Source: Bacteroidota bacterium (GTDB taxonomy: Bacteria; Bacteroidota; Bacteroidia; AKYH767-A; 2013-40CM-41-45). Taken from it: a DNA stretch of 64,000 nucleotides. Shown here piece after piece: positions 3,827-49,573 of this stretch (its first letter is position 1; each line of letters opens with the position of its first letter). A model generated the notes under the pieces. That model ran no database searches. It was given only the letters and a program-made list of their open reading frames with translations, and was not told the origin of the DNA. The position numbers were made by a program, and so were the translations under genes. Where the stretch lies: positions 132 to 64,131 of the forward strand of contig JANOBV010000274.1 in the NCBI GenBank assembly GCA_031411835.1, read 5' to 3'.

Positions 3827-4261
3827 TTATTCAAAAACTGGCCCTCTATTGGTATAAATCACATTCCATTGCTTTTCGATTTTTGAAAGTTCTATGATTT
3901 TATATTCTTGAAATATTTTTATTTCAGTCAAAGTACCATTAGCACTTTTAATTGAAAATGAATTATTTTTGTTTTGATTTTCGGTGTAATCCAATTCAAT
4001 TTGTTTTCCTGTAAATGAAGTAGACGAACTAGTTTCAAAATACTCCCTCATAATCATTTTTTTATTATAATAAATTTCCAAAGAATCTTTAAAACCAGCT
4101 TCAAAATATATTGTAACCTTATTATCGAACAGACTTTTTACTTCGGAAGTGTTTTTATCAAAGGATGTCTTAATTTCTGAACTAGCTTTTTTTTGCGAAG
4201 CACATCCTATATTAAAAAAGATCAGCAAAAGGAAAAATGTAATATTTTTCAAGTTTTTCAT
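3827..4261 (-). CDS. Lipoprotein, candidate cognate immunity protein of the main RHS metzincin tip
   Basis: 144-aa ORF with lipobox FFNIGCASQ. 4-nt overlap with the stop of the 4701-aa gene. Confidence 0.65.
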   Translation of the reverse strand: MKNLKNITFFLLLIFFNIGCASQKKASSEIKTSFDKNTSEVKSLFDNKVTIYFEAGFKDSLEIYYNKKMIMREYFETSSSTSFTGKQIELDYTENQNKNNSFSIKSANGTLTEIKIFQEYKIIELSKIEKQWNVIYTNRGPVFE

Positions 4262-7200
4262 TTTGTCGATTTTTTATCTTCGTCAATAGTTTCATAAAAT
4301 TTAAATAATTGGCCTGGAGTAGATTTTGTTGCAACTTTACCAGATCCATTATAATAACGATTTGAGACATCTGGGTTGGCGCCTGAATTCATTATGTTCT
4401 CTTGAATTCTAACATCTGGAGCAACGCCTTGCATTATATCTTCATCAGCGTCTCCTTTTTTAATTTCCCAAGGGTGTAATGCCCCAGCAGAGTGACCTAG
4501 TTCATGAGTGATGGTTCGAGATAAATCATCGTCACTACGACGAATTCCATCAACATAAGTGTATATTGAAATAACATTAGTTTGCGAATCTGCTCCTGGT
4601 CGCACAGGTGTTGAACCTGCCGTGTAGCTACCGTTTTTATCTGAAGTCGTAGCTTTTAATACTAAGGTAATCGTATTATTGTTGCCAACTTTATTTGCAT
4701 CCACAAATTCATATTCTAGTTGTGCACTATAATTAATGTTCTTGTCTTTATCAAATTGTGTATATGTTTGAGAAAATTGTTCTTGTGATTTTATAATTGA
4801 TTTTTGATTCTCTTCAACTGAACTTTCACAACGCGAAGCGTCGATGACTTGAATTTTTGTTTTAAAATCAACATTAAATTGCCCAGTCCTGATATCATAA
4901 CTAACTGTTTTTGACCACTCCTTGCCGTCTAAATCAATTCCGTCAATAACTCGATTTTCAGCAAATGTATATGGCGAATTCCACGGGAAATTATTTCCAA
5001 TTGGATCAATAGATAGAAATTTACCAAGCCTCGGATCATAAATCCTCATCCCATAATCCTGCAACTTCCCAACTCCTTTTACATCATTCAGATTTTCTTT
5101 GTCATTAAACCCAAACCGATAATCCGCACTACTCAACGTTCTCCCCGGCATGAGCATCCCAAACGGGTAATAGTCATTCGCAGTTGCAATTTCTGGCACA
5201 CTCCAATCTGCAACGTTATCGTTATTATTATCAAACAATACTTTCTTATCAGTAACAGTTGATAACACATTTCCCAAATGATTTGTAAGCTCATACATTT
5301 TTCTACCTGACCATGCAGAATAGAAATCAGGTTGTGTTGGAGTGGAAAAATCGAAAATTACTGTATCTACATTTAATACGCCAAGTCTGCTACTACCATA
5401 AATATTCAACTCTTTCAGTTTATATTCCCATCCATCTGTGAAAACATATGTGGCCATAATATTTCCTTGCGCATCGCGAACATGATAGAGTTGATCCATT
5501 GACCCCAGTCCAAAATGCTCTGTGTATGTTTCTACTTTGTTTCCCATTGGATCAAAGTAATTTAATATGAGATCTCTTGGGGTAAATGCAAAATACATTT
5601 TACCATTATTGTTAAAATCATATTGCATAGTGTCGGCTGCATCGTAGATAATGTTGCCGTTCAAATCATACTGATAATTTGCCGTGACTTGGGCATCCAG
5701 ATCTTCAGAATAATTTGAAGGGCTAACTGCATCATCAACAAAATCCAACATATTGGTACCTGAGAAATAATGATACTGAAGGCTGTCCATTTTTAAATAA
5801 GGTCCATTGTTTGTTGTACCATTTCGCTCATATGTAAGAATATTTCCGTTCGGATCATATTTTACATTCTCTTTATAATCTTCCAATCCGGCTGCTGTTG
5901 TCCATTCATGAATGGTGGTATCCAATCCATTATAAGCACGCTGAGCCGTCAACCTATTCAACTGATCGTATTTGTAAACATAACCAATATTTAGGAAATT
6001 CAAACTATCCATAGCTAAAACTGAGTGCCGGATATTTCCGTTATACAGACCATTATCCATTAAAGAACCATTCTTGTAGCTATCATTTCCAAACGTAGAA
6101 CCGCCCGTCGGATTGTAATTTGCTTCAAAATTACTTCCTCCAATTGGAGCATAATCCTGATTAAAGTAACCGAGATTGAATCCATATGCATCCCTAGAAA
6201 CAGGATCTATTCCTCCTAATGGTGGAATTGTACCATCTTGTCCCATATCGCGATTTGGATCTAGTTGAGAAGAATTAATTCCTTTCATCCAACCTTGCAG
6301 TGTATAAGCATAATCTATTCCCTGTACTTTATTCTCACCGAGTTCAACACGCGCAAGTGGACCATGCATATAATATGAATAGTGCGCATCTTCATCCCAA
6401 GTCATTCCATCGCGACTTGTATAAACATGTGTTATACGGTTGTCATCATCATATTCATAATGATGAGTAAATTGATCAATCGAATCACGTTGGTAATATA
6501 CATAGTTCACCTTTCCACTGATAAGATCATAATCATAATCGATCCGTTTGAATTGGTGATCTATCGAATTTAAAGTTGCAACTTCCTGTATAAGTGTTTT
6601 AACATTTCCGGAAATATCATAAGAGTAATGCGATGCCGAATAATAGTCTGTACTTGGATCATAAAATGAAAGATCAGAATAAGTCACACTAGAAACCCTG
6701 TTTCGCAGATTTTCCTGAGTAAATTGAGGAATTGTAAATACAGGTTCATCGTAATATGTCTTAGCTACTTCTGATTGCACACCAGCAGCGATCCATGCAG
6801 CAAACGAAGACGGATTTCTTGAAATTGCATTTGTTAAAGTAGTTGCGTTGGTAGTTTTTCCAACTTCTCCTACCCTTCCCAAATCATCATAAATTGTATA
6901 AGAATAACTATTCGCATAAAATTGAACTCCATTTTGCGAAGCAATGATTCTACCGACGTTATCATAGAAATAAACAACAGCATAGGCATCAGGAGTTTTT
7001 TGTCCTACAGGTTTATTCAATGAATTATAGTTATAAATAGTAGCGAATGGAGAAGTACGATATATTGGTGTAGTACCGAAACCACCATCTCTTACATCTA
7101 CAATTTGTTGCAATGTATCAGGATCATTGAATGGATGTACACCATTGGGCGGAATAGTAGCTACGAGATTTCCAGCCTGATCATAATAGTATAATGTGTA

Positions 7201-10200
7201 ATGATATTCTGAAAGTGGTCCATCAACATAAAAACTATCAACCATGGATTCGAGGCAATGCGCCATGTAATTATTTCTGAATTCTCCACGAAGCGAATCT
7301 TTATACAACTGATAATTATGTGCAGCGTTGTGATAGGCGAGTGTAATATAATCGTCCAGACATCCAGGAATATGGAATGTATCTGCAAGAGCAGGGAATT
7401 GCCCTTGATCACAAAGCAACAGGCTTCCTGAAGTATCGGGATGACAAGTTTGCAATTCAGTTTGGAGTTGCGCTTCTGTCCAAGTTTTTCCTAAATAATC
7501 ATTCACGAAATCCCACGGAGTTACGGTCGTATCATACGATGCAAGATAAGCTTGCATTGCTTCATCAAGAGAATCACAAGAAGACATAAGTATTCCACAA
7601 CTGTCAAGCATATGCAGATATTCCGGGTAACTAAAGCTAAGCCCCAATAAAGAATCTAAATAGACATTCAATACAGGAAGATCCAATACGTGTAAATGAT
7701 GATATGCTGCCAATGTATTTAATGTATCACAAGGAAGAGGTAAATAAATATCACAGTGATCAAACCAATATAAATAATCCCAATAATCGAATGTAAGGGT
7801 TAGTTGCGTGTTGAACCAAGTTGTAAGATCCTGCGGCGGTGTTAGCGCAAGGAAATCATTATACAACAATTGCAATGAATCACAATCTGTTGGATTAGGA
7901 GTATCTCCACCACAGCTAATTAGTAATGCATCATAATAAGATTGTGTATAGATGAAAGGATCGAGATTCAATATTGAACTTGCATACAAATAAAATAACG
8001 GTTTCGGTTGCGGCAAAGCATCGAACACTGAATCAATTGCAAGAATAGTATCACAAGGCAGCGGAAGTGCAATGCAGCCGTTGAACAAGTGCACATATTC
8101 ATAATATGTAAAGTTCATCGTCAGATGATCATTCATCCAATCATTCAAAGCAATCGTTGTCCCCGAAGATAAATATATTTGATAAAGAGAATCATAAACA
8201 TTACACGGTGAAGCGAATGGTGTATCAACATCACATATTGTAAACCAATCCCAGTATTGTCCAACAGTAAAATTAAGTTCCAATTCCGTATTTAACCATG
8301 TATACAAATCCGGGCCGGGTTGACGAACTTGGTAGTAATTGACATAGGTAAATAATTCAACACAATTATATGTGCTATCTGTAATATTACAGCTATCCAA
8401 AAGTACATTCACTGAATTTGAATCCGGATAACTTAGACCAAGTATCATATTCAACCATAAATAATACGGCGGACGTGGAGCAGGGAGTGCATTGTAAACA
8501 TCAGTCAGATCACTCAAACTATCACACGGAAGAAACGGATCAACACCACAACTATCGAGTAAATGAACATAGGTCCATAAATTATAATTCCAATTCAGTG
8601 TCGTAGAATCATTCAAATAAACATCCATTGCTACGACGTTCTGATAAGGAAGCCATTCGTAGTAGAGAGAATCTAATGTTTCGCAGAATGAATTCGCCGT
8701 ATCAATATTACATGAATCTAACCACGAAATAAATTGCTGATCTGAATAAGTTGTATTCATCGTATCATTTAACCAAACAAACAAACCATTTTGGATTAAT
8801 GAATTAGTGTAAACGCTAACCAAAGCACTTAGAGAATCACAACCTGGGAAACAATGGAAAAGATATAGTGTATCCAAACTACAGAATTCGACTAAGTGAG
8901 CATAGATAGAATCAGGAAGTCCCCATCCTGTTGTTGAATCTAAATATGCAATCAATGAAAGAGAATCGCTACAATTATAACTATTAATAAGGCTGGAAAT
9001 ATAACTACACGTATCACAAACTTCAGATACCGGACAACGAAGAAATACTTGTTGCCATTCATAATCTGTCAGAACAAGATCGAGCGATGCATTCAACCAA
9101 TTTTCCATGGTGATGTTAGTATCACATGGGTAGATCCCGGCGTAATAATTAATACTATCACAATTTGGAATGCAGTGTGAGATCCAATCGATACTGCAAG
9201 TATCCATCATGGAAATGAAAGTTGAATCAGAATAATTCCATCCGGATGCATTCGCAAGATAATCTCTCAACGAAATTGTATCATTACAATTATAACCTTG
9301 CATTAAACTATCAAGTACTGGACAAGGTGTACAAGTTGTATCAATAGCACATCGAACATAGATTAAACTCCAGTCATATTCAGAATATGATAAACCAAGA
9401 GTATCATTCAACCACATCCAAACCGGAATCGGACTTAAGCATGGATAATGTGATGCAAGTGCTTCAAGTGTATCACAATTAGGGATGCAATGGTGAAGCC
9501 AATCGATGTTGCAACTATCGAGCATAGAAATAAGGACAGAATCAGAATACGTCCATCCAGTCAAACTGTCGATCCATTGAGTGATAGAGATTGCAGAATC
9601 GCACGGATAGGAATTAACGATATCTTCCAGATAAGAACATGAATCACATGCTAAACTTCCCGGGCAATTCATCAATATCAATTGCCATTCATATTCTGAC
9701 AAAGAAAGATTGAGTGTATCATTTAACCAGACCCATCTTTCCAAAGTTGTATCACATGGGAAACTATGTGCTAGTTCAATGAGTGTGTCACAAACAACAC
9801 AATGATCCATCCATTGAATGTTGCAGCTGTCAAGCATGGATAATATTGTCGAATCAGAATAATTCCATCCGCTTAAAGTGTCTATCCATTCAGAGATCGT
9901 AAAGATCGAATCGCATGGGTAAGAAGCAAATAATGTATCGAGGTAATCACACGAGTCACAGCCTATAGAGCCGGGACAATTCAACAAGATCCTCTCCCAC
10001 TCGTACTCAGACAACGAAAGATTGAGAGCATTATTCAACCATACCCACCGTTCAATGCTTGTATCGCAAGGGAAATTATTTCCAAGTGAAACAAGAGTAT
10101 CGCAAGCAACACAATGATCCATCCATAGGATATTGCAACTGTCGAGCATAGAAATAATTGTGGTATCTGAATAGTTCCAGCCACTTAAACTATCGATCCA

Positions 10201-13200
10201 TTGAGAAATTGTGAAAATCGAATCGCATGGATAAGAAGAGAATAACGTAACAAGGTAATCGCACGAATCGCAGCTTATCGCACCCGGACAATTTATCAAT
10301 ATCCTCTCCCACTCGTACTCTGACAATGAAAGGTCAAGAACATTATTCAACCAAACCCAACGTTCGATGCTTGTATCGCAAGGGAAATCATTTCCAAGTG
10401 AGACAAGAGTATCACATGCAACACAATGATCCATCCATTGAATATTACAGCTATCTAGCATAGAAATAATTGTGGAATCTGAATAATTCCATCCACTCAA
10501 ACTATCGATCCATTGAGAAATTGTGAAGATCGAATCGCAAGGATAGGAAGAGAACAGTGAATCCAAATATAAACAGGAATCGCAGGAAATAGCAGCAGGA
10601 CAATTTATTAGTATTCGTTGCCATTCGTATTCTGAAAGAGAAAGATCCAACGCATTATTTAACCACACCCATCGTTCAATTGTGGAATCGCAAGGATAAT
10701 TACCTCCTATTTCAACCAATGAATCGCAAAGAACACAATGCTCTCCCCAATTAATACTGCAGCTATCCAACATTGAAATAATTACTGTATCAGAATAATT
10801 CCATCCGCTTAAGCTGTCAATCCATTGGGTCAATGTAAAAATTGAATCACATGGATATGAAATTACAAGATCACTTAAATGCTGACAGGAGTCGCAGGCC
10901 ACAGATCCAGGACAATTAGCGAGAATAAAACTCCATTCATATTTTGTATACTTTAAATTAAGTTTATAATTAAGCCATGCCCACCGTTCCATGGTTGTGT
11001 CACATGGGTAATCATCCGACAAAGCAACTAATGTATCGCAAAGTACACACCTATTCATCCATGAAATATTACAAGTATCGAGTAAAGCAACAACAGCAGT
11101 ATCTGAATAATTAAAATGGCCCATGCTATCGACCCACTGCAAAAGACTAAATGTCGAATGACATGGATAAGTAGCTGCCAGTGAATCAAGGTTGACGCAC
11201 ACATTGCAGTTTGTGTCCATTGGACACGCTAAAAATATTTGTTGCCACTCGTATCTGGTGAATGATAAGTGCATTTTTTGATTCAGCCATGACCACAAAG
11301 TTCTTCCAGTATTGCATGGGAATTGGTCCACATAATTCTGAAGAGTATCGCAATTATAAATACAATGAGCAAACCAATTGATGTTACAGCTATCAAGTCG
11401 AGGAATTAGTACACTATCAATGATATCATGCGGCAAATGTTCACTAAACCATTTTGTTAATTCAACTCCTCCATGACATGGATAACTTAGCAATATCTGA
11501 TTATATTCATCGCATGTATCACAATCAAAATTTATGTGACAAAATTCAAGGGCATATTCATAATCAGCTTGAGTATAATTTAGGCCTAATAAATTATTAA
11601 AAAAGTACTCAATTGTACTGTCTACCAAACAATCATACCCAGAATAAACGTCAATCAGTTTGTCACAATTTATGCAAGGCAATTGAATATGGCAACTATC
11701 CATGTAAACCAACCAAGTGGAATCCGAATAGGAAAACCCAAAATATGTATTTAAATAAGTAGCCAATGGCACTTTGCTTTCGCAATTGTATTCGGAAACC
11801 ACCATTGTCAAATTGTCGCAATTTATATGACACGGTATTTCGAATCTACATTTTATTATCAAAGAATCCCATTGTGTACTTGTATATCCCCAACCACTTT
11901 CATTTTCAAGATGCTGATAAACCGTTAATGTATCAGAACACTTATACTTATCAAGAAAGTGAGACAACTGCACACATGTATCACAATTAATTGTATCACC
12001 ACAAATGCGGAAATACATTGACCAAATATCAATATTTAAATTAACATCAAATTTGTCATTCATATAATCAACTAAAGATAAAGTGGATTTACAATTATAA
12101 GAATGAATAACATCATTAATGGATGCACAACAATTGAGACTAATATTGCATTCGTCAAGATAATGATAGTAAAAGCTATCCGTATAATTTGCCTGGAAAT
12201 AAAAATTCAACCATTGCATGAGAGTAATAGTGTCTTGAAAACAGTTGAATTCACCGACAGCTGCTGTAAGCAGTTCGCAATTAAATGTATTATGCGTAAT
12301 TGAGCAACTGTCAAGCCATTGCAAATAAAAAGACATTGAAAAATTATATCCAAGCATATCATTCATACACCTACTTAATAAGTAGGGAGGTTGAGAAGAC
12401 GCACATATATCATAAATTTCCTTAAGTGTATCACAAGATACTTTAACCTCAAGCCGATCATCAGTGCACATACTAAATATTGTCATATAATCAGAAAAGT
12501 TCAAATCTAAATTTAAATGAAAGTTGAAATAATCAGTAAATGGTGGTCTGACTGGAAGTGAAATGTAAGAATGATACCAATCCAATAAAACTTCGCATGG
12601 AATTGGTGATCTGCCATGGCATTGTTTCAGCCAAAGAATATATTCATGTAAAGTAAAATTAAGACCAAACGATGAGTTCATGCAATCAGCGAAATGATCT
12701 ACTGGATAACTAATACACGAATCTCTTTTGCTATTCAAAGAATCACAACTTATAGTAAATTCTGTCGGATCACCGGAAACGTAAATACCGCAATTATATA
12801 ACCATTTAAGAAGTGCTTCTCCTTCAATTGACAAACCTAAATAATTGCTGAACCAAACTGATAATGGAGGTTGATGCGTCAACAGATTATAAGCATTATA
12901 TGCTTCCCAAATTTTCATACAATCTATATATGGAACATTACAGCTATCCAACCAATTTGCATATGTATTCCAACTATAATCAACACCCAAAATACTATTC
13001 AACTGATTTTCAGGTGTAACACACTCTTCTATCGTCGGCCAAATTGAATTATAGAGGATTGCAATTGAATCGCATGAAGCAGATCCGGAAGGCACATCAA
13101 GTAAACAATCTGTAATTAATTTTGCCCATTGCTGATAGGTCAAATTTAAATCAAAAACCTGTTTAAGATAAACTGTTAGAGGCGGCCTAACTGTACTATC

Positions 13201-16200
13201 AAGACTAGAATAATTATCAACTGCATTTTGAAGGTCAATACAAGGAATTAAATTTACTCCACAGGAATCAAACCATTCCAAATATTCATTGATTGAAAAA
13301 TCAATGCCAATCGTATCATTCAAACAATTTGCAAACAAGCAAAATGCTGTTGAAGAATGGCAATCGACCAACAATAAATTAAGATTTAAGCAAGCAGTTG
13401 GCGAGTATGTTGGAACTGTTATACTACAAGCACTAAGTTGAGTCATATAATAACCATACGTATGTGTTGCTCCCAAAACATGATTCATCCACATTGAGAA
13501 TGGAGGACGCAACCCAACTGGTATAGCATTATACAAATCCACTGCAGAATCCAACAAGAAACACGAAGTCATCATTGCTGCTGAATTCATCTCAAAAGAT
13601 TCACTCTCCGAAGGTGGGATAAACAAATTATCTGTGCTCGCAATAAAATCACTTGAAAGTTTTGTGTTAGGTCTATACGTTTCAATAAAACTTGAAACTT
13701 TTCCTATAGATTCAAAATTGAAAGCAGATTTACCTTGAATGATTTTTGATTCCCTTTTCACTGGCCAATCTACATTACCTAAATCTGATTTAATATCAAT
13801 TTCAGATTTCTGTAGAGAATCTCCTATTTCAGATCTGTGCTTTAGGCTTTTGAGTTTACGTTCATTTTTTAATCTATTATACTCGTCAATTATATGTTGG
13901 CGATTTCGCGCATCAGAATTTTTATTCGCGTTCGTTGGCGTAATAGAAAATGTAGAAGTGTTTTTACTTCTATTTGTCGGCACTAAATGGTCTCCACTTC
14001 TACGCATAGTCATACCAGTAGCGTATGGAATATGTGAAGATGGATCACAATTTAAAATCCACGCAGCATATTGCATGTAATTATAATCCAAAAACAAATG
14101 TTTATTTATGTAAACCACAAAAGAATCAGCCGGTAAGCCTGATGCTTCAAATTCCGCTTTGTGGTACATCAATGTATCGCAAATTACAAATCCGGTTGTG
14201 ATGGTATCGAAAGCACAGTTGTAGATCCAGGTAGAATAATCTCTTTCAGGAAGTGAGAAAAGTAATTCTTGGTTGAAAAAATCAACTAGGGACATGCCAC
14301 CTGCATCTTGTTGCTGCAAGTAATCAATGAAAATAAGTCGAATATCATTGCAGTCTGGCGGTGGATTAGCAACAATAGTGTCGATCGAACATTGACTCAT
14401 GAATGAATAATAATCTGTTGGCGACAAATGAAAACCGAAACGATGGTTAATATAATCGGCCATGATCTCGGGATCATCTTCACTGCCTAATACGAGGCTA
14501 AATTCATTTGTATAATCAACATAAGCTGAACTGATACTATCGCATGGCAAACAATCATTGCAACTTAAAACTTGGGGCAAACGAATAGCTTCCGACATAT
14601 TCAAACAAATCGAATCAAAACAATTTGAGCGAATTATTTCCAGCTCATCTTTAGAAAGCCAGCTTTGAAAATTAGTGGAGAGATATACCTGAAAAGAATC
14701 TAGTGAATAGTTTCCTGTTTCAGCAACCATCATAGAGAAAAGGCTATCAAACTTTTCACAAGTACATGTAGATGGTTTTGGAAAAGCAATGTCATTGACA
14801 TCAATCGCACCCGGTTTCTCATACGGTCGTGGTTGATCAATAACTACAGCATTGCATCTTGAATTTGAAGAAACACCAAGAATTTGTTCCATTGCGGTTT
14901 GAAAATCACGAGGAGATACAACACTTGTATCAGCAGCAGTACTAGAGCCTAGTGGATGCGTGGCGTCGCAACCTGCTTTACAGATATCTTCAAATTTATT
15001 AAGTAAAGTATTCAATGTTGCAGCATCAATATTGCCGCAGTAATCCTGAAGCTGATGAGTCCAGGCATTTCTGTATGAGTGACAAATATCACTACAATGT
15101 TGATCCAACTTATCTTTATTAACATATGCATTCGCCTGATTTGTATCTGCAAATGTAAGTGGTGCATTTGGCCCTTGGTGATTAAATCTTGGGACTTTAT
15201 ACTTATAAGCTATTCCGTATCGAGGTCCGGCACACGTTCCAGTATGACCCAAGTAATGGTATGGGGACAATGGATCACTCCCAATCCAATTATTTCCACA
15301 AGCGCTTGCGGCACTACATGTTGAAGTTGCAAAATAATTTTCCCGCAATGCAAAATATTTATCCTTCTCATAGAGATATAGCAATTTAAAAGCTTGCCAT
15401 GCTACGTTCTGATCTCCTACACATAAATCATATATATTTAATGTATCAGTACAAAAATCATATCCTGCAGGTAATTGACCATGTATAGCTGCAAGACAAG
15501 CATACTCCCACAATGTATATGTTATATTAGATTTTCCTGTGCAAGCAGCATTATATGGTGATGAAAAAGGAACAGTTTTATAACTATGCAACTTTCCTTC
15601 GAATGCCGAAAGATATGCATGACCATCTGCTAACGCTGGCACAAAAAAGGGATCAGGGTTTGGATTATCCAATGGATGAATAAAGCCAAGGCTATCTGCT
15701 GCAGCAAACGTTTCAACTTCTAACATCTGCGCATCATAATCATTAGACTCTGAATTTTTAATACAAAATTCCAAGTAGCAAGATTCAGGATGAGACTTCA
15801 AAAGTGATATTGCCCAGGACTCATCAAAATTATCTATGAATTCCTGCAAACCTAATTGATCAGGTGTTTTCGGTCCGTCAGGTGTTGAAACAAAAATAGT
15901 ATCTCCTTGTTCATCTAGATAAGGTGTTGAAGGCGCCTTAGAATAATTGAAATGTGTTCCATCCCAATAAAACAACGAGGTTCTATCAGAAGTGTCTGAT
16001 GGCATTCCGTCTGGATCCTTTCCATAAGAAGCATATTGCCCACCAGGCTTCAAATCACTTATCATCAAATCCCTTTTAGTTGAACACACATCGAAAGGGT
16101 GACAAATTTCCATGCACTGCAAATAACTTTTATGATAGAGGTTATAAGCATTGGTTGAATCTTCGCCTGTAAATGATGTATCAATAAAGCCTCCGGCTAT

Positions 16201-18363
16201 AAGTTCCGTAAACATCTCTGCAATGAATGAAGCAGAATCGCCTAATTGATCCATGCATGTTTCACAAGTCAGATTGCAACCGGAAGAATCTATTGTTGAT
16301 AATTCATTCTGTATAAATGAATCAATAGATATGCAAGTATTCTCTCTTAGAAATTTATCCGTATAAAAATCCAACGCTTTATTACTTACAGTGACAACTC
16401 TGCTTATGAAATATGAACCAACTGTAAGATCAATTTGAAAAGTATCAGCCAAAGCAGAATCCGGAAGAACACACAAAGTATCAAATGCATTAGATAATGA
16501 ATCTGGAAATGGATACGTATTTGGTATTTTATAATTCTGATAATTTCTAATTAAAAGCGGTTCATTTCTATTTGCATTCGGGCTGCACAACGAACTTATA
16601 GATACTTGAATATTATAATAGCAATCATAACAGATAGAATCATTATCACAATTTGCAAAAGTCAAATGATCCGGAAATATTGAATAGTAAAATGTAAATG
16701 TCCCCGGAGTTTTTGCTAAAAAAGATGTAGAACTTGTTACTGAAGAATCCTGAATAAAACTAGGTTCGATCAATGGAGTTCTTATAATAATATCGGGAGA
16801 ATATTCACGTAAAGTGTCTAGGTTATGAGGAGGGTGTCCAGTAAGCGCAGTAGCAATTACACGATCATGTGCATCTTTATAAGCAACAGAGCCTTGTCCA
16901 TTAGGGTCAACAGTCAATTCTTGAGTATAATGAATATCCTTTCCAACATCATTTCCAAAAAGTCGATCCAATTCTGTTTGCGATGGTTTTGCATAATAAA
17001 ATTGCGTTTCATGACCTGAGCCCAATGTCAGATCTTGTCCCACTCCACTCTGTCTATTCACTCTACCTGTATTATCAGGTGTAAATTCTGTTACTGAAAA
17101 CGGATAACCAAATGAATTTGGAATATACTTGAAAGGAGCTTGGGTATATAGTGGATTGTTATCAGAATAATAACGAGCAGCGCCTGAATCAATACTCAAA
17201 GGCACAGGGCCCACACCGCAACCTGCAGTATCAAAATCCATCCAGCTATAAGGATCTCCAGCTGGATTCATATTATAACGATGATAATATCTAATCTGCG
17301 GATTGAATGCCGGAGCAGGTAAAACCTGTACAGCTGCACGCCCTTGATAATCGTAAATAGTTTCAGCAACAACTGTTGTATCTACAGAATTTACACGAGT
17401 AACAGATTGACGATTTCGAAGTGTGCCGTCATGATATGAGATAACTTCTTTACGCTTTCCTTCCTCTGCAAATGATACATTATACTGCCATGTCAATGTA
17501 GGTTCATGCCAAGGTACAGTATACCAAGATGAAAAATATCCCCATTCAGTATTTGTCAATTGATATCCGGGAAACGTTTTCACTCCACGAACTCTATATA
17601 ATAATTTCCCCTGACTATAGATCAAAGGTATTTCATAGGCATTAGCGGATGTATTAATTCTCGTTGCACCAAGATGAAAAAGTGAATCTAGGTTACCATA
17701 AAATGAAAAATTCTTTACGACTAAACTACTATCATCAAAGAATGCCCATTCAAGATCATAGCTGTTTGCACCGGGAATTTGTGACCAATTTACTTGAAGT
17801 TGATTTCTTGGAGCGTCATAATTCACAGAATTAAAATTCGGAGATAAAGAACAATTAAAAGAATACGAACGATTAAAATTCAGTTCCGCATATAACCTAA
17901 GATTATTATGCTTAATTACAGAACCGTTTCCTTGGGCAAAAACGAAAGCACCTACTGTCACTTTAATTCTATATGCATCTTTAATATAATAAATTGCTTT
18001 GTTATGGTAAGGCTTATTGGCGATAGTGTCATAATCAATATACATTACTACTGACTGAGAAGTCATTGTATTCAATGAATCCCAAGTATCGATATTCAGT
18101 GTGACAGAGCAACTATAAGAATCTTTTATTACTTCACTTGATTGAGGATCTATTTCAAAAACAACAAAACCTTTAGCAGAATAAACTGTATCGATTGTAG
18201 ACCATGTGGCAGTATCTCGAACTCCTAGTGTATCCAATGTATTGAAAGCTGTTCCAGATAAATAATCGGAAAAGGTTTCAGTTTGAGCATTCGCACTGAA
18301 TGTCAAAAGAAGCAACACGACAAGTATTTGCCCTCTAAACCAAAGTAAAATTTTCTCAATCAT
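4258..18363 (-). CDS. Giant secreted RHS/YD-repeat polymorphic toxin (4701 aa) with a C-terminal metzincin-type toxin domain
   Basis: Uninterrupted 14.1-kb ORF. Signal peptide LLLLTFSANAQTE. YD-type repeats such as YYYDQAGNLVAT, YDDLGRVGEV, YDISGNVKTL, YDDDNRITHV, YDPNGNILTY and YDLNGNIIYD map to ~5.2-7.2 kb. Hinge DYYPFGMLMPGR...IDGIDLDGKEW. HELGHSAGALH at 4474-4506. Confidence 0.95.
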   Translation of the reverse strand: MIEKILLWFRGQILVVLLLLTFSANAQTETFSDYLSGTAFNTLDTLGVRDTATWSTIDTVYSAKGFVVFEIDPQSSEVIKDSYSCSVTLNIDTWDSLNTMTSQSVVMYIDYDTIANKPYHNKAIYYIKDAYRIKVTVGAFVFAQGNGSVIKHNNLRLYAELNFNRSYSFNCSLSPNFNSVNYDAPRNQLQVNWSQIPGANSYDLEWAFFDDSSLVVKNFSFYGNLDSLFHLGATRINTSANAYEIPLIYSQGKLLYRVRGVKTFPGYQLTNTEWGYFSSWYTVPWHEPTLTWQYNVSFAEEGKRKEVISYHDGTLRNRQSVTRVNSVDTTVVAETIYDYQGRAAVQVLPAPAFNPQIRYYHRYNMNPAGDPYSWMDFDTAGCGVGPVPLSIDSGAARYYSDNNPLYTQAPFKYIPNSFGYPFSVTEFTPDNTGRVNRQSGVGQDLTLGSGHETQFYYAKPSQTELDRLFGNDVGKDIHYTQELTVDPNGQGSVAYKDAHDRVIATALTGHPPHNLDTLREYSPDIIIRTPLIEPSFIQDSSVTSSTSFLAKTPGTFTFYYSIFPDHLTFANCDNDSICYDCYYNIQVSISSLCSPNANRNEPLLIRNYQNYKIPNTYPFPDSLSNAFDTLCVLPDSALADTFQIDLTVGSYFISRVVTVSNKALDFYTDKFLRENTCISIDSFIQNELSTIDSSGCNLTCETCMDQLGDSASFIAEMFTELIAGGFIDTSFTGEDSTNAYNLYHKSYLQCMEICHPFDVCSTKRDLMISDLKPGGQYASYGKDPDGMPSDTSDRTSLFYWDGTHFNYSKAPSTPYLDEQGDTIFVSTPDGPKTPDQLGLQEFIDNFDESWAISLLKSHPESCYLEFCIKNSESNDYDAQMLEVETFAAADSLGFIHPLDNPNPDPFFVPALADGHAYLSAFEGKLHSYKTVPFSSPYNAACTGKSNITYTLWEYACLAAIHGQLPAGYDFCTDTLNIYDLCVGDQNVAWQAFKLLYLYEKDKYFALRENYFATSTCSAASACGNNWIGSDPLSPYHYLGHTGTCAGPRYGIAYKYKVPRFNHQGPNAPLTFADTNQANAYVNKDKLDQHCSDICHSYRNAWTHQLQDYCGNIDAATLNTLLNKFEDICKAGCDATHPLGSSTAADTSVVSPRDFQTAMEQILGVSSNSRCNAVVIDQPRPYEKPGAIDVNDIAFPKPSTCTCEKFDSLFSMMVAETGNYSLDSFQVYLSTNFQSWLSKDELEIIRSNCFDSICLNMSEAIRLPQVLSCNDCLPCDSISSAYVDYTNEFSLVLGSEDDPEIMADYINHRFGFHLSPTDYYSFMSQCSIDTIVANPPPDCNDIRLIFIDYLQQQDAGGMSLVDFFNQELLFSLPERDYSTWIYNCAFDTITTGFVICDTLMYHKAEFEASGLPADSFVVYINKHLFLDYNYMQYAAWILNCDPSSHIPYATGMTMRRSGDHLVPTNRSKNTSTFSITPTNANKNSDARNRQHIIDEYNRLKNERKLKSLKHRSEIGDSLQKSEIDIKSDLGNVDWPVKRESKIIQGKSAFNFESIGKVSSFIETYRPNTKLSSDFIASTDNLFIPPSESESFEMNSAAMMTSCFLLDSAVDLYNAIPVGLRPPFSMWMNHVLGATHTYGYYMTQLSACSITVPTYSPTACLNLNLLLVDCHSSTAFCLFANCLNDTIGIDFSINEYLEWFDSCGVNLIPCIDLQNAVDNYSSLDSTVRPPLTVYLKQVFDLNLTYQQWAKLITDCLLDVPSGSASCDSIAILYNSIWPTIEECVTPENQLNSILGVDYSWNTYANWLDSCNVPYIDCMKIWEAYNAYNLLTHQPPLSVWFSNYLGLSIEGEALLKWLYNCGIYVSGDPTEFTISCDSLNSKRDSCISYPVDHFADCMNSSFGLNFTLHEYILWLKQCHGRSPIPCEVLLDWYHSYISLPVRPPFTDYFNFHLNLDLNFSDYMTIFSMCTDDRLEVKVSCDTLKEIYDICASSQPPYLLSRCMNDMLGYNFSMSFYLQWLDSCSITHNTFNCELLTAAVGEFNCFQDTITLMQWLNFYFQANYTDSFYYHYLDECNISLNCCASINDVIHSYNCKSTLSLVDYMNDKFDVNLNIDIWSMYFRICGDTINCDTCVQLSHFLDKYKCSDTLTVYQHLENESGWGYTSTQWDSLIIKCRFEIPCHINCDNLTMVVSEYNCESKVPLATYLNTYFGFSYSDSTWLVYMDSCHIQLPCINCDKLIDVYSGYDCLVDSTIEYFFNNLLGLNYTQADYEYALEFCHINFDCDTCDEYNQILLSYPCHGGVELTKWFSEHLPHDIIDSVLIPRLDSCNINWFAHCIYNCDTLQNYVDQFPCNTGRTLWSWLNQKMHLSFTRYEWQQIFLACPMDTNCNVCVNLDSLAATYPCHSTFSLLQWVDSMGHFNYSDTAVVALLDTCNISWMNRCVLCDTLVALSDDYPCDTTMERWAWLNYKLNLKYTKYEWSFILANCPGSVACDSCQHLSDLVISYPCDSIFTLTQWIDSLSGWNYSDTVIISMLDSCSINWGEHCVLCDSLVEIGGNYPCDSTIERWVWLNNALDLSLSEYEWQRILINCPAAISCDSCLYLDSLFSSYPCDSIFTISQWIDSLSGWNYSDSTIISMLDSCNIQWMDHCVACDTLVSLGNDFPCDTSIERWVWLNNVLDLSLSEYEWERILINCPGAISCDSCDYLVTLFSSYPCDSIFTISQWIDSLSGWNYSDTTIISMLDSCNILWMDHCVACDTLVSLGNNFPCDTSIERWVWLNNALNLSLSEYEWERILLNCPGSIGCDSCDYLDTLFASYPCDSIFTISEWIDTLSGWNYSDSTILSMLDSCNIQWMDHCVVCDTLIELAHSFPCDTTLERWVWLNDTLNLSLSEYEWQLILMNCPGSLACDSCSYLEDIVNSYPCDSAISITQWIDSLTGWTYSDSVLISMLDSCNIDWLHHCIPNCDTLEALASHYPCLSPIPVWMWLNDTLGLSYSEYDWSLIYVRCAIDTTCTPCPVLDSLMQGYNCNDTISLRDYLANASGWNYSDSTFISMMDTCSIDWISHCIPNCDSINYYAGIYPCDTNITMENWLNASLDLVLTDYEWQQVFLRCPVSEVCDTCSYISSLINSYNCSDSLSLIAYLDSTTGWGLPDSIYAHLVEFCSLDTLYLFHCFPGCDSLSALVSVYTNSLIQNGLFVWLNDTMNTTYSDQQFISWLDSCNIDTANSFCETLDSLYYEWLPYQNVVAMDVYLNDSTTLNWNYNLWTYVHLLDSCGVDPFLPCDSLSDLTDVYNALPAPRPPYYLWLNMILGLSYPDSNSVNVLLDSCNITDSTYNCVELFTYVNYYQVRQPGPDLYTWLNTELELNFTVGQYWDWFTICDVDTPFASPCNVYDSLYQIYLSSGTTIALNDWMNDHLTMNFTYYEYVHLFNGCIALPLPCDTILAIDSVFDALPQPKPLFYLYASSILNLDPFIYTQSYYDALLISCGGDTPNPTDCDSLQLLYNDFLALTPPQDLTTWFNTQLTLTFDYWDYLYWFDHCDIYLPLPCDTLNTLAAYHHLHVLDLPVLNVYLDSLLGLSFSYPEYLHMLDSCGILMSSCDSLDEAMQAYLASYDTTVTPWDFVNDYLGKTWTEAQLQTELQTCHPDTSGSLLLCDQGQFPALADTFHIPGCLDDYITLAYHNAAHNYQLYKDSLRGEFRNNYMAHCLESMVDSFYVDGPLSEYHYTLYYYDQAGNLVATIPPNGVHPFNDPDTLQQIVDVRDGGFGTTPIYRTSPFATIYNYNSLNKPVGQKTPDAYAVVYFYDNVGRIIASQNGVQFYANSYSYTIYDDLGRVGEVGKTTNATTLTNAISRNPSSFAAWIAAGVQSEVAKTYYDEPVFTIPQFTQENLRNRVSSVTYSDLSFYDPSTDYYSASHYSYDISGNVKTLIQEVATLNSIDHQFKRIDYDYDLISGKVNYVYYQRDSIDQFTHHYEYDDDNRITHVYTSRDGMTWDEDAHYSYYMHGPLARVELGENKVQGIDYAYTLQGWMKGINSSQLDPNRDMGQDGTIPPLGGIDPVSRDAYGFNLGYFNQDYAPIGGSNFEANYNPTGGSTFGNDSYKNGSLMDNGLYNGNIRHSVLAMDSLNFLNIGYVYKYDQLNRLTAQRAYNGLDTTIHEWTTAAGLEDYKENVKYDPNGNILTYERNGTTNNGPYLKMDSLQYHYFSGTNMLDFVDDAVSPSNYSEDLDAQVTANYQYDLNGNIIYDAADTMQYDFNNNGKMYFAFTPRDLILNYFDPMGNKVETYTEHFGLGSMDQLYHVRDAQGNIMATYVFTDGWEYKLKELNIYGSSRLGVLNVDTVIFDFSTPTQPDFYSAWSGRKMYELTNHLGNVLSTVTDKKVLFDNNNDNVADWSVPEIATANDYYPFGMLMPGRTLSSADYRFGFNDKENLNDVKGVGKLQDYGMRIYDPRLGKFLSIDPIGNNFPWNSPYTFAENRVIDGIDLDGKEWSKTVSYDIRTGQFNVDFKTKIQVIDASRCESSVEENQKSIIKSQEQFSQTYTQFDKDKNINYSAQLEYEFVDANKVGNNNTITLVLKATTSDKNGSYTAGSTPVRPGADSQTNVISIYTYVDGIRRSDDDLSRTITHELGHSAGALHPWEIKKGDADEDIMQGVAPDVRIQENIMNSGANPDVSNRYYNGSGKVATKSTPGQLFKFYETIDEDKKSTK
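7410..14768 (-). repeat. Coding array of about 43 tandem cysteine-bracketed ~50-56-aa modules inside the RHS gene
   Basis: By-eye partition of the translation. Each module looks like C-(D)-(S/T)-L..Y...(P)...W/Y-(L/M)-N..L.L.(F/Y)(S/T)..(E/Y)(Y/W)..(L)(D)(S/T)-C. Example: CDSLSDLTDVYNALPAPRPPYYLWLNMILGLSYPDSNSVNVLLDSC. One ~190-aa charged linker interrupts the array near 13.5-14.1 kb. Confidence 0.8.
9024..11208 (-). repeat. Seven tandem 312-nt (104-aa, two-module) super-repeats; the central copies are near-identical at DNA level
   Basis: gaatcgcatgg/gaatcgcaagg recurs at 9908, 10220 and 10532, exactly 312 nt apart. Protein copies read CDSC.YL..LF.SYPCDSIFTISQWIDSLSGWNYSD.TIISMLDSCNI.WMDHCVACDTLVSLGN.FPCDTSIERWVWLNN.L.LSLSEYEWERIL.NCPG.I. 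Confidence 0.9.
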
Positions 18364-18365
18364 AA

Positions 18366-19055
18366 TTAAAACCTTAAGTGATTAATTAGCGAATATTTTT
18401 TATACTTCGGAGTCAATTGAACAACGGAGTTTGTGATATTTAAATATTTATTAACATTGTATTTGTCTTTCAATTCAACATCTGAAAATAAATAATCCGA
18501 ATATTCATACTTTACAATCGGAATATAATCGTACAGATCATTTATTGGCGTATTGTAATAAACTGAAATAAGCTTCAACGTAAACCTCTCAGTATTAAAA
18601 CTAATTCTAATTGAATCTATGGCATCACTTACTGAATAAAGTGTGTAAGTCCGAGTATTATTCTTATTGAAAACAATTTTCGATATGATTTTTGAATTAA
18701 CAATAACACTGTCAAGGAAATTAAAACTTACCTGCTTTCTTGCATCTGCAGAAGCTTTCGAAACAAGAATGCCTTTCATTTCCTCATTCACAGAAACCAA
18801 CACATTGCCGTCTGAAACACTTTTAATTCCCTCAAGAGAAACAAAGTATTTTCTTTTATAGAATGAATATTCGCCGAAACTAGAATCGATCAAGCTATTC
18901 GTTTTTCTGTCGCCATAAACAATTTTCATTTTGTATGAAAATTGTTTGTCGCCAGAATGAACCCTTTGAATTTGCATTAAGTCTTCTGCCAGATTCTGCG
19001 CCTGGATGGCACTATAGAAAAAGCAAAAGAAAATTAGGACTAAATAGACCTTCAT
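18366..19055 (-). CDS. Secreted protein of unknown function, operon partner
   Basis: 229-aa ORF. Signal peptide LIFFCFFYSAIQAQN. 2-nt gap to the RHS gene start and 4-nt gap to the upstream gene. Confidence 0.7.
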   Translation of the reverse strand: MKVYLVLIFFCFFYSAIQAQNLAEDLMQIQRVHSGDKQFSYKMKIVYGDRKTNSLIDSSFGEYSFYKRKYFVSLEGIKSVSDGNVLVSVNEEMKGILVSKASADARKQVSFNFLDSVIVNSKIISKIVFNKNNTRTYTLYSVSDAIDSIRISFNTERFTLKLISVYYNTPINDLYDYIPIVKYEYSDYLFSDVELKDKYNVNKYLNITNSVVQLTPKYKKYSLINHLRF

Positions 19056-19059
19056 CGTC

Positions 19060-22000
19060 TTATTGTTTTTTGAAATTTGTTTGAGCTTCTTTAATTGTCA
19101 TAACACCTCTTTCTGTTTCCTTTTTCACTCTAATTAAATGGCCTTCATCATCATATTCATAAAATGTTGCATAGTTATTTGCATCCAATTCACTCATTAA
19201 ACGAAGTGATCTTGAACTATAAACAAACGATTTCATGTTTGAGTGATATGGATAGATTCTAAAGTCATCAAAGTATGCAGTGTTAGTTCCAGCGCAGAGT
19301 TCAATTCTGATTTTTGTCGCATTAGCTGGCACATCGAACACTTCATCATAGCGCTGCCATCCTTCTACAACAACTCCTTTCGGATAGAAAACATTCACAG
19401 CGGTATTTCCGGTAAAACTGACAACAATCGAATCCTGTGAATAACCAACAGGTCCACATGCCGCATCTTCTTTGACCCAAACACTTAAAATATACTTTCC
19501 TGAATCGGGTGAAAATTTATCGATACATCCATTGACCATTTCATACCAGATGCTATCTTTTTCGATATACAATGAGTCCTCGCCTTTATACATAATATCT
19601 TTTTCTACAAAAGCGCTTTTACCATTTGCAATATGTAAGGAGCGGTTTCCTGTATGTGAAAAATCCGTCGAAATAGAAATTCCATTTGCTGTATCAAGAG
19701 AATTTTGAAAATCGAAATGTTGCGATATACAAACTGAACAGGAATTTCTGAAATCATAATCTTCAAAATTATCATTAGCAGTTTGCTTTAACCTAGCATT
19801 TGCAGTCACCGCTTTTACGAATGAATTCACATAACCATAAATAGCTGATGAATAATGATCAAGCGCATCGTGACTTTCAATCTCAGTTCCTTGTTTCGAA
19901 ATACGTGTTACAGTATTTGTCGCAATCCAATTAGGGTCAGATTTCCCTGTATTATTCCAGCCGGAACTGTAATTCCAGAATGGAGTGAAATCTTCATAGT
20001 ATCCATCATCCTTAATTCTTGAAGCATTCACAGCAAGCGGTTTTCTGTTAGTATAATAATTCCAAGTTTTAGAAGGATGCCAGTTGTTTATCATTCCACG
20101 ATGATAAGGATTTGCGAACACGGTTAAATTTTCACAATCGTTTTGACAACTAATACATCTCAAATCAAACAAAACGGAGTCTCTATGATTCACTCCTACA
20201 TAAACAACACCATCAAATGGATTACTTGGTGGAATTAAAACAGGCATTAGTGAATCAAGATTAATAGGATTCCCTGACAAGCTTGTCATTGACAAATTAC
20301 ACTCACCAAAGTGCCACTCTGAGTAAGAAGTAACAGTGCTCGAAGACGGACAATTCAAACTATAGAACGGCATTGAATCAACATTTTGTTCGTTTATAGA
20401 ATCCGGATCACAGGAACAATGGCAATAATCGAAGAGCTCACCAACAGTTATACTATCTTCCACACAAGCATTGTAAACATTATTGCTGTGATTCAAATTG
20501 TAGTTGATCATTGCATTCACAAAATTTTCCAAACAAAATTCTGGAACCACAGTATCGCAATTTTGAACTCTCTCTTCACCACAATAAATTTTCCATTTAT
20601 CGTTGTACTCAAGTGCGCTAGCTGAAATAATTCTTGCATTAGAAGCCACTTCGAAAGTGTTTGTACTTGAATTAATCGGTGGCGATTTAATAGTTGTCAA
20701 AGAGCCGATAGGAAGCGATTGCATATTTCTTCTACCTGATCTTACTACTTTAAGATCTACCATATTAAAATTGAATACACTTGAAATAGACAGGAAATTA
20801 TATTGATCGTGTACTCTTAATACCCCATTATATTTTCCCACATAATATCTCCCACCTATAGGTACTTCATTTTTCTCCAGAACAATTTCATCGCCATCAC
20901 ATAAAAGATCATTGATGTTAGAGACACCTGAACCAATATAACCATCATGTATGAGCACATTCGGAATTTTCAAACCCGAATTTATATATGCAGGCCCCAT
21001 ATTCTTATAAGCCCAATGTGCAGGATATGTCCAATTGTAAATTGGCTCATCAAATTCATTCGTAGTTTTTGTGAGTAGTACTTCACCCGTTTCTGAATCC
21101 CTTAAAAGGTTTTGTTTTTCTACTGTTGAACCGTCTTTGACCTCAATAACTTTTTCAAGTATCCCATACTTGTGAACTACTTTTGTTGCAACAACTGATC
21201 GAAATTGCACCTCTTCGCTTGTGAATGAAGGGAGAATTGGAGGTAGGACAATAAACAAAGGGAAAAACCCTAATGGAAAAATAAAGCCATCCGAATTATA
21301 ATCTAGTTTTTCTCCTACGGTACTAGTATTCTCTTCTCGCATGTCCATACACAAATCAATATCTTGAGCAATTTCTCTGTTATAGATCTCTCCTTTAGGT
21401 GTAATTATATCAGCATGTTCATTCAATCTTAAATGATCTTTGAAGTTTTCAGATTTATATACGTATTCTGTACTACTTACATCATGACCAAATGCATTCC
21501 TAATTTTTACGTTTTTCGGCTTGCCATGCATATCATTAATTTCAATGGAATATCCTTGACTGACCATCCATTTCTCTGATGAATATAGTGATCCGAGAAA
21601 GCTTAGTTTGAAAGGTGGCTTCTTTTGCGCGGACAAAATATTCGTACGCGCAGTTATTACAGGAAAGTCTTTCGCTGTATAAAATGTATTCTCAGTATAA
21701 CCTGTTGCTGTTCTTCGAATATGTTCATTACTAAAATTTGAAACATATACCTTACTATACCCAACAACCGGGCTTGGAAAAAATGATTCGCCAAATGGCT
21801 CTTCTAAATAACCATAATCACTCGAACCTAGTGGCTTTGTAATTTCATAATTTACAGGTTGCTTAAAAGGATTTTCATCATTTCCTATAACCGGCTCCCA
21901 ATTGGCCACACCTGAACTTATGTATTTTCCTCCAGTTGTATCTGCATAAAAATACTCTTGTCCATACTCTTTATATAAACCATCAGTGGACATCGAATTC

Positions 22001-25497: not shown

Positions 25498-25500
25498 AAT

Positions 25501-26088: not shown

Positions 26089-26093
26089 ATAAA

Positions 26094-27164: not shown

Positions 27165-27168
27165 TGCT

Positions 27169-47864: not shown

Positions 47865-48011
47865 ATGTTAACTATTGATGAAGCAAAGAAAATATTAAAC
47901 AAAGAAAACGAAGAATACACTGATAGCGAAGTTGAAATAATCCTAAAGGTCCTGCAAAGATTTACAGAACTTGAAATAGAATTTCTAAAACAAAAAGAAA
48001 TAGATGATTGA
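47865..48011 (+). CDS. Small leader ORF overlapping the recombinase start
   Basis: 48 codons, MLTIDEAKKILNKENEEYTDSEVEIILKVLQRFTELEIEFLKQKEIDD. 8-nt overlap with 48004. A homologous relic lies at 32420-32617. Confidence 0.5.
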   Translation: MLTIDEAKKILNKENEEYTDSEVEIILKVLQRFTELEIEFLKQKEIDD

Positions 48012-49539: not shown

Positions 49540-49573
49540 GAAACTTCTATTCTATCCATTGAACTACGGGGCC
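49500..49573 (-). tRNA. tRNA-Arg (anticodon CCU)
   Basis: Hand-folded cloverleaf. Acceptor GGCCCCG/CGGGGCT, D-arm GTTC/GAAT, anticodon arm GAAGT-TTCCTAA-ACTTT, T-arm GCAGG-TTCGATT-CCTGT, discriminator A. Confidence 0.85.

Follow-up and report, generated by a model that had tools for sequence, protein, structure and literature searches.

In the 64,000-nucleotide (nt) stretch of Bacteroidota DNA analysed here (assembly GCA_031411835.1, contig JANOBV010000274.1, positions 132 to 64,131 of the forward strand; hereafter the window, numbered from its first letter), one uninterrupted open reading frame (ORF) of 14,106 nt on the minus strand (4258..18363) encodes a protein of 4,701 amino acids (aa) that, judged by its sequence, is an RHS/YD polymorphic toxin of the Bacteroidota DUF6443 subfamily. 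Between its N-terminal region and its YD shell, where a preliminary description made from the letters of the window had placed them, the protein carries an array of 43 small cysteine-bracketed modules (residues 1202-3641; nt 7441-14760), split once by a 160-aa basic spacer. That these are 43 Cys-closed three-helix modules is a description in which we have high confidence. We regard the module as a domain family not described before, and the protein as a new architectural form of RHS polymorphic toxin with a tandem-domain stalk. As to function, we give roughly even chances to the reading that the array is a disulfide-locked extracytoplasmic stalk or spacer of the toxin cage. The basic spacer, the three-zone organization of the array and the placement of the gene on the minus strand are points beyond the preliminary description.

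A profile hidden Markov model (HMM) of the module, seeded from seven modules chosen by eye and then iterated on the 4,701-aa protein, recovered 42 modules, each at E = 2e-9 to 5e-19 in the full set, with three at aa 1274-1440 (starting at aa 1274, 1338 and 1395; E = 3e-11 to 8e-14 for these) and 39 contiguous at aa 1601-3641. A 43rd, degenerate module (module 0) at aa 1202-1248 was matched at E = 0.009, and its counterparts in the homologues P0010 and P0012 at 2e-6 and 1.5e-5. Both the earlier estimate of about 43 tandem Cys-bracketed units and the range given for them (7410-14768) were thus borne out. The module itself is about 46 aa long and is followed by a linker of 4-12 aa, which results in a period of 50-58 aa. 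When the array was shuffled 50 times, the seed HMM produced no match below E = 1e-3, compared with 33 in the real protein, and the family HMM run on the whole protein found no match outside the array.

The array is divided into distinct parts, all of them on the minus strand. Modules 0-3 (aa 1202-1440; 14044..14760), which constitute the ancestral low-copy set of most relatives, are followed by the spacer (aa 1441-1600; 13564..14043), a non-repeat stretch rich in Ser, Asn and Lys that contains no Cys and has a net charge of +4. The spacer is the sole basic stretch of the region, and it may serve as a hinge, be cleaved or bind to a surface; a similar low-complexity stretch is also present in the homologues P0001 and P0002. 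The main array then consists of an N-flank zone of nine modules (modules 4-12; aa 1601-2078; 12130..13563), a central zone of 21 four-Cys modules (modules 13-33; aa 2079-3174; 8842..12129) and a C-flank zone of nine modules of the two-Cys type (modules 34-42; aa 3175-3641; 7441..8841). This symmetric 9/21/9 zoning might mean nothing, or it might reflect a fold-back (hairpin) arrangement. In the N-flank zone, modules of an "RPP" type alternate with modules holding extra internal Cys (C11 and C22, by position within the module, in modules 9 and 11). In the central zone the two alternating sub-types noticed earlier were confirmed, with a mean identity of 23% between adjacent modules and 53% between next-but-one modules, and the super-repeat there is two modules long (104 aa, 312 nt; Tandem Repeats Finder reported a period of 312, 3.9 copies and 78% matches), the direct DNA repeats of this zone being 61-80% identical. 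Across the array as a whole, next-but-one modules are up to 91% identical and adjacent modules never exceed 31%.

The two bracketing residues, C1 and C43, were invariant in 42/42 modules of the protein and in 137 family modules, and the W-L-N core was conserved, in agreement with the earlier statement that each unit starts and ends with Cys and has an aromatic/Leu/Asn core. Each of the 137 family modules contains either C1 and C43 only or these two plus a co-occurring Cys pair. Covariation, which had been proposed as a check on Cys pairing, showed that C13 and a Cys in the downstream linker were both present in 70 modules, both missing in 54 and discordant in 13 (Fisher p = 2e-24; 137 modules), and that C11 co-occurred with C22 in 9/9 cases across the family. 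Module 12 has C13 without an upstream linker Cys and module 34 has an upstream linker Cys without C13; these boundaries of the four-Cys zone indicate that the partner of C13 is the downstream linker Cys and not the upstream one. The main array contains 130 Cys, an even number. Within the central zone, mostly 2-3 residues (0-3) lie between the tethered linker Cys and the next C1, so that the joints between modules would be stiff.

The structure of four consecutive modules (aa 2542-2749) was predicted with AlphaFold2 (AF2), using a 24-row alignment of non-overlapping four-module windows drawn from six proteins. The preliminary description had called for a prediction of two to four modules, and the resulting model contains a bundle of three short helices in each, with a mean predicted local distance difference test score (pLDDT) of 84.5 and a predicted template modelling score (pTM) of 0.58, a value which we judged to be higher than four independent 52-aa domains would give. 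The predicted helices are 8-10 residues long, with helix 1 running from C1, helix 2 extending over W-x-W-L-N and helix 3 ending at C43. C1 and C43 are therefore located at the two ends of the predicted bundle, and a disulfide there would close the module. Disulfide geometry and rod shape, as discussed below, were derived from this predicted fold and from Cys co-occurrence, not from coordinates.

Comparisons with known families support the earlier view that the module does not belong to a named one, as nothing significant was found in Pfam, NCBIfam, PDB sequences or Foldseek. Scans of the whole protein with Pfam-A 2025 and NCBIfam 20.0 gave no match within the array, and a further scan, at E<=1, of 24 four-module segments taken from 6 proteins produced no family with matches in more than one member. 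Foldseek searches of the four-module model against PDB and BFVD gave no match below E = 1. RecX was the only repeat-of-three-helices protein among the matches (E = 5-9.5, TM score 0.22-0.29, not significant); like the array it consists of tandem small three-helix units (three repeats), but it is cytoplasmic, has no Cys in this role and is unrelated in function. Pfam showed no match to FIVAR or GA, and neither 2DGJ nor 6GV5 was among the 35 Foldseek PDB matches at E<=10; Pfam EGF likewise had no match in the protein or in the module segments, which are predicted to be all-helical and have 2 or 4 Cys per module. Two candidates were rejected. A match to the calponin-homology (CH) domain of EB1/EB3 in the PDB sequence search (whole-sequence E ~1e-3, per-stretch E 1.7-20) covered only a 19-residue motif (WVNDSLHLNYT) and not the ~110-aa length of the domain; the first helix of this CH domain resembles the helix-2 motif (..W.WLN..L.L.Y..) at module positions 16-34, for example at aa 2561-2579. 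A Pfam Bcl-2 match in the homologue P0008 was judged spurious, with no single stretch within the E-value limit. The literature that we searched contained nothing on DUF6443 or on such a module.

An exhaustive search with the module HMM, which the preliminary description had also proposed, covered 1.84 billion representative proteins and yielded 14 proteins at E<=1e-3. Three of these (P0009, P0011 and P0013) contain unrelated low-complexity repeats, leaving about 11 true carriers. DUF6443 was present in every carrier with a readable N-terminus, and all readable contexts were DUF6443-RHS. The largest counterpart is P0002 (locus L004; 4,968 aa, 39-40 modules), followed by P0003 (a fragment with 23 modules) and P0001 (a partial protein with 16 modules from a Bacteroidia metagenome-assembled genome (MAG), locus L002), whose lineage has at least 25 modules. 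P0008 (3,244 aa) contains about 10 modules of a longer variant, P0010 (2,554 aa) five, P0012 (3,225 aa) four and P0014 (2,777 aa) two, while P0004-P0007 are fragments. Midway through the P0002 array, at aa ~2860-3280, there is a non-repeat stretch of about 420 aa in which PKD and Ig_7 (CHU_C-associated) matches fall just below the Pfam cutoff. In P0008, a more distant DUF6443-RHS protein, aa 1358-1970 hold about 10 copies of a 55-70-aa variant module (C.eLq.Iv..y...C...F..YFN.hFG..YTWdeI..lYik.CG). These copies have 47% mean identity to each other and at most 41% to any module of the 4,701-aa protein; being closest to each other, they point to an independent expansion. Other routes to homologues returned less: a word-indexed protein search with the array found one homologue only, the others having come from the exhaustive profile search; a search with the DUF6443 region found only fragments of 132-416 aa; a scan of a genome collection found one 3.9-kb contig at 46% identity; a metagenome scan with the single protein as query found nothing; and megablast of the array against plasmids gave no match.

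A wider sample of the family was obtained with the shell-start motif EYHYTLYYYD, which identified at least 490 related metagenome loci, of which 80 were fetched. In 68 RHS ORFs from the fetched loci, the region before the shell was typically 1,400-2,300 aa long, and 0-3 modules could be detected in it near aa 1,200-1,300, where modules 0-3 of the 4,701-aa protein also lie. The family further includes RHS ORFs of about 1,100 aa (L023 and L031) in which the shell is preceded by no more than ~73 aa. These lengths do not bear out the earlier supposition that relatives run fairly directly from the N-terminal region into YD repeats. Comparison of repeat number among homologues, another check that had been suggested, gave 0-3 modules in most, then 5, about 10, at least 25, 39-40, and 43 in the present protein, with large arrays among the relatives confined to the P0002, P0003 and P0001 lineages. 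The relatives share the N-terminal region of about 1,200 aa; between the 4,701-aa protein and P0002, identity is 49% over aa 1-1200 and 57% in the shell. Flank modules of these two proteins correspond largely one-to-one and in roughly colinear order, several of the C-flank modules (34-42) having reciprocal best matches in P0002, whereas the central alternating modules do not correspond in this way, the totals nevertheless being similar at 42-43 and 39-40 modules, respectively. With 0-5 resident copies at the same site and a long pre-shell region in relatives, these comparisons indicate that a resident module was amplified from 1-5 copies to about 43 and that no foreign sequence was inserted; the "huge insertion" of the preliminary description must accordingly be set aside.

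The copies are old and under purifying selection. At the DNA level, copies of the super-repeat are 61-83% identical (the best di-module pair reaching 83%), and a repeat scan of the array found no near-identical copies. Among paralogous di-modules dN (nonsynonymous divergence) was 0.06-0.32 and dS (synonymous divergence) was at least 1.26 or undefined, that is, saturated, with dN/dS at ~0.05-0.16. Relative to the orthologue in locus L083 (P0005), the nearest relative at 71-78% aa identity, dN/dS was 0.072 for the modules, 0.059 for the shell and 0.047 for the pre-shell segment. The L083 gene is truncated at its 5' end (region 1-312 of the locus), where it begins within a module and is preceded by stop codons, and it resembles a long displaced RHS fragment; a full-length gene from a close relative did not turn up.

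The composition of the array is strongly skewed, with 2.4% K+R, 12% D+E and a net charge of -198, and aromatic residues are abundant in its modules (W 3.8%, Y 6.7%). The main array contains 69 copies of the motif D-[ST]-[AILVMT], 6x the shuffle expectation (z = 17.6), and the shell has 0.75 per 100 aa. This is the Bacteroidota O-glycosylation motif, which is near-completely occupied in non-cytoplasmic proteins (PMC12871550), and from its frequency we consider the array to be probably O-glycosylated.

The disulfide-stapled extracellular stalk put forward in the preliminary description is the reading that best fits the signal peptide, the paired Cys, the three-helix fold and the PKD/Ig matches in P0002; its functional part is still drawn from these features. 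Under this reading, a Sec signal peptide would export the protein, and folding would take place in an oxidising extracytoplasmic compartment. There each module would be closed by a C1-C43 disulfide linking the start of helix 1 to the end of helix 3, and in the 21 central modules a second disulfide would tie the helix 1-helix 2 loop (C13) to the following linker. The array would then form a long, stiff, mechanically inextensible and strongly acidic rod, which at 2-2.5 nm per module might reach about 100 nm, a rough estimate and not a measured length. The load path would run through the C1-C43 bonds, and with tension carried in this way the modules need not resist unfolding. Such a stalk would hold the YD cage and its metallopeptidase-like toxin away from the N-terminal 1,200 aa, which presumably dock to the producer surface or to a conserved 2,145-aa partner, and would determine how far a polymorphic antibacterial toxin can reach. 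What we infer here comprises the disulfide bonds themselves, the shape and length of the rod, its glycosylation, its exposure at the surface and its role as a spacer. A spacer is suggested by a copy number that ranges from 0 to 43 at one fixed site, by independent expansions in at least two lineages, by the probable Ig-type domains inserted in the P0002 array and by ancient orthologues with similar array length. In addition, dissimilar neighbours combined with next-but-one identities of up to 91% form the pattern expected if tandem domains must avoid mutual misfolding; such avoidance between adjacent tandem domains is discussed in PMC8201768.

Several observations weigh against a simple stalk. 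A pTM of 0.58 leaves the geometry between modules uncertain, and pLDDT falls to 66-77 at the linkers after "WVWLN"-type modules. Much of the D-[ST] enrichment lies at conserved helix-start positions (CD[ST]L), so it could represent helix capping instead of glycosylation. Central copies retain 77-91% aa identity despite saturated synonymous sites, a constraint stronger than a passive spacer would require and a hint that they have a specific surface for binding or packing. The C-terminal YD region of ~760 aa is shorter than single-chain Rhs cages, so N-terminal strands or the partner might complete the cage, in which case the array might be a loop leaving and re-entering the cage and not a linear stalk. 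More tentatively, and with less conviction than we attach to the stalk alone, the array may belong to a Bacteroidota apparatus for toxin delivery that has not been described so far and whose reach it would set, as a disulfide-locked, glycan-coated and force-resistant rod of about 100 nm; in that joint reading the apparatus would consist of the Sec-exported DUF6443-RHS protein with its stalk, the always-adjacent ~2,100-aa partner, a lipoprotein, a LolA-like chaperone and a putative outer-membrane protein.

The constraint on the central copies bears on the alternative that the array is a multivalent binding surface, whose modules would recognise a repeated ligand (glycans or cell-wall polymers) on target cells or matrix, with length being secondary. 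The abundance of W and Y, the near-invariant W-L-N and the constraint on surface positions that is implied by 77-91% identity at saturated dS would all fit such a role, as would the precedent of Embp, whose helical-bundle repeats bind ligand besides forming a rod (PMC7587433); large clostridial toxins, with their repeat regions, and Embp, with FG repeats that bind fibronectin, would then be comparable cases. However, no known binding domain was matched by sequence or fold, the conserved positions follow a hydrophobic-core pattern, and the net charge of the array would repel anionic bacterial surfaces. We read the module surfaces as differing by ~50% from the P0002 lineage, with no single ligand site obviously kept, and 0-3 modules suffice in most family members. 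A binding array is on balance unlikely.

A further possibility, which we rate as quite unlikely, is that the modules act as an assembly scaffold, packing side by side, forming a two-stranded hairpin from the cage or docking along the 2,145-aa partner to give a fibre or sheath. The partner gene is found with the RHS gene in 43 of the fetched loci, and the symmetric zoning, the strong constraint on central modules and the short YD region are each compatible with this reading; the model of the N-terminal region, moreover, has its best match in SGS1, a cage protein in which accessory domains leave the shell as excursions (PMC9935623). Set against these points, most relatives that have the partner carry 0-3 modules, which means that the partner can do without the array, and hhalign did not detect any resemblance of the N-terminal region to the YD shell of the same protein. 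L023 and L031, with their short pre-shell segments, suggest that the YD part can stand alone, although they could be orphan cassettes. Finally, the array might be an artefact, either a shorter repeat that was wrongly assembled or part of a pseudogene in decay, without a protein product. Its copy number is hard to assemble, and assemblies of relatives do break here: locus L002 has a 100-N scaffold gap in the central array (17160-17259), and the L083 copy is truncated at its 5' end. As such breaks occur and near-identical collapsed copies are conceivable, 43 should be taken as a lower bound. Nevertheless, the frame is open over its full length, the repeat copies have diverged too far at the DNA level for an assembly artefact to be likely, dN/dS is low both among the copies and against the orthologue, and the independently assembled P0002 has its modules in the same order at both flanks. 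An artefact is accordingly highly improbable.

Taken as a stalk, the array can be compared with several known systems. The giant staphylococcal adhesins Ebh and Embp (FIVAR-GA "FG" repeats; 2DGJ, 6GV5, 6GV8) are also built of dozens of alternating bundles, and the elongated rod that we propose here would be a further likeness. Each of their repeats consists of two different three-helix bundles in strict alternation and is ~70 Å long, and Ebh measures ~320 nm overall (PMC7587433). The array shows no sequence or Foldseek similarity to them; its bundles are much smaller and joined by short loops, whereas those of Ebh/Embp share a long helix. The array belongs to a Gram-negative Bacteroidota host, with an RHS toxin cage as payload in place of an adhesin. 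The repeats of Ebh and Embp are not known to be disulfide-bonded, whereas the modules of the array are predicted to be disulfide-closed. The ectodomain of teneurins likewise has a tandem run of small disulfide-bonded modules, which serve as an extracellular stalk, upstream of a YD shell (reviewed in PMC6297184, PMC6425310), but these are eight beta-rich EGF-like modules with 6 Cys each, compared with 43 helical modules with 2 or 4 Cys, and we judge the resemblance to be convergent, with no homology. In periscope proteins (SasG, Rib, SHIRT and CdrA stalks), the copy number of tandem domains sets the projection distance (PMC8201768). Periscope stalks have near-identical DNA repeats, 82-100% protein identity between neighbours and rapid change in copy number; the array, with neighbours at <=31%, DNA copies at 61-83% and saturated dS, is old and probably stable. 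Ordinary DUF6443-RHS proteins (P0010, P0012, P0014 and most of L007-L082) share the N-terminal, middle, pre-shell and shell regions, the variable toxin and the ~2,100-aa partner; they contain 0-5 modules instead of 43 and lack the basic spacer and the alternating four-Cys sub-types.

Outside the array, the layout of the protein (minus strand throughout) begins with a putative signal peptide at aa 1-26 (MIEKILLWFRGQILVVLLLLTFSANA, followed by Q; 18286..18363), read from the translation, with a hydrophobic core, A-N-A and Gln at +1. The region that follows (aa 27-520; 16804..18285) was modelled with AF2 from a 33-row alignment; the 494 residues gave a pLDDT of 81.7 and are nearly all strands, with a beta-sandwich, an FN3-like domain and DUF6443 hairpins. 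Its top Foldseek PDB matches were mosquito SGS1 (8fjp_A, E=4.5e-8), followed by FnIII stacks. SGS1 is a horizontally acquired Rhs/YD cage protein; a phmmer search of the whole protein against PDB gave no match. DUF6443 (PF20041) scored 34.3 bits when aa 1-888 were scanned alone (cutoff 27.8) and 24.9 bits in the whole-protein scan. A conserved, Cys-containing middle region (aa 521-1201; 14761..16803) is common to all family members, as judged from a by-eye alignment of P0001, P0002, P0008, P0010, P0012 and P0014. Downstream of the array, a conserved pre-shell segment (LCDQG...NAAHNYQLYKDSL...; aa 3642-3717; 7213..7440), evident in an alignment of seven family members, leads into the YD/RHS shell (aa 3718-4480; 4924..7212), which extends from EYHYTLYYYD to the Rhs-associated core (Rhs_assc_core, TIGR03696; 37.1 bits against a cutoff of 32.5, aa 4398-4480). 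Pfam RHS_repeat had no match at E<=1 on the 4,701-aa protein, in whose sequence YD motifs are visible, and it matched homologues over the same shell region (P0008 at 24.8 bits, P0012 at 29.6 bits). The variable C-terminal toxin (aa 4481-4701; 4261..4923) has an HExxH motif (ITHELGHSAG) and weak Reprolysin matches, both below cutoff (Reprolysin_5, E = 0.0013; Reprolysin_3, E = 0.06); the close relative P0005 ends in an unrelated C-terminus.

The start of a putative immunity gene (3827..4261, minus strand; 144 aa), assigned by position and sequence, overlaps the RHS stop; its product has a lipoprotein-type signal (..FFNIGC) and matched no family. Further downstream lie two orphan RHS C-terminal cassettes, one at 771-1655, where Rhs_assc_core scores 41.7 bits, and one at 2810-3751, where it reaches 27.9 bits and so misses the cutoff of 32.5; both begin at the core motif YYPFGMLMPGR, and each is followed by a small gene for a protein with a signal or lipoprotein peptide. 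Together with the small genes around them (115-771, 1711-2145 and 2295-2813), these cassettes are likely to be spare toxin-immunity pairs. A variable C-terminus, an adjoining 144-aa gene and downstream orphan cassettes make up the usual layout of a polymorphic-toxin locus, and the signal or lipoprotein peptides of the immunity candidates suggest that the toxin acts in the target periplasm.

Upstream of the RHS gene there are five co-directional genes (18366..29130, minus strand) encoding proteins of 653, 356, 195, 2145 and 229 aa, and the same five-gene order, with similar sizes, is found upstream of P0001 in L002 (1-9942). From their sequences, the 653-, 356- and 229-aa proteins read as having signal peptides, the 195-aa protein as a lipoprotein and the 653-aa protein as ending like an outer-membrane barrel; the 229-aa protein is LolA3-like, although its 74.4 bits fall short of the cutoff of 83. 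Homologues of the 2,145-aa gene were present in 43 of the loci that were fetched, and in nearly all of the rows listed they lie on the upstream side with respect to the RHS match. Its product had no match in Pfam, NCBIfam or PDB sequences, and a likeness of its N-terminus to SpvB/TcB found no support in those three sources. The five-gene set and the RHS gene together look like an uncharacterised RHS-associated apparatus. Elsewhere in the window we observed a GmrSD-type restriction gene at 41981-43588, a large serine recombinase at 48004-49539 (region 48004-49573) whose 3' end overlaps an opposite-strand tRNA-Arg(CCT), and a rise in GC content, around 34-42 kb, to values of 0.40-0.44; behind the RHS locus of L002 there are genes for a phage-type integrase and an HTH_17 protein. 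It is possible that the toxin locus adjoins a mobile island or forms part of one.

Toxins are widely packaged in RHS, Tc and teneurin cages, and it is the region in front of the cage that decides by which means the target is reached; for the large Bacteroidota DUF6443-RHS family, we know of no account of delivery. The present analysis indicates that this family can grow 43 helical modules, predicted to be disulfide-closed, at one fixed site, a convergent parallel to the EGF stalk of teneurins and the helical rods of Ebh/Embp. It also delimits cleanly a new domain family, with an HMM, a fold prediction and a disulfide map, whose module is a compact and possibly force-resistant building block for protein engineering. 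Importantly, the family provides a natural length series of 0, 5, 10, ~40 and 43 modules, with which it can be tested whether reach limits contact-dependent killing.

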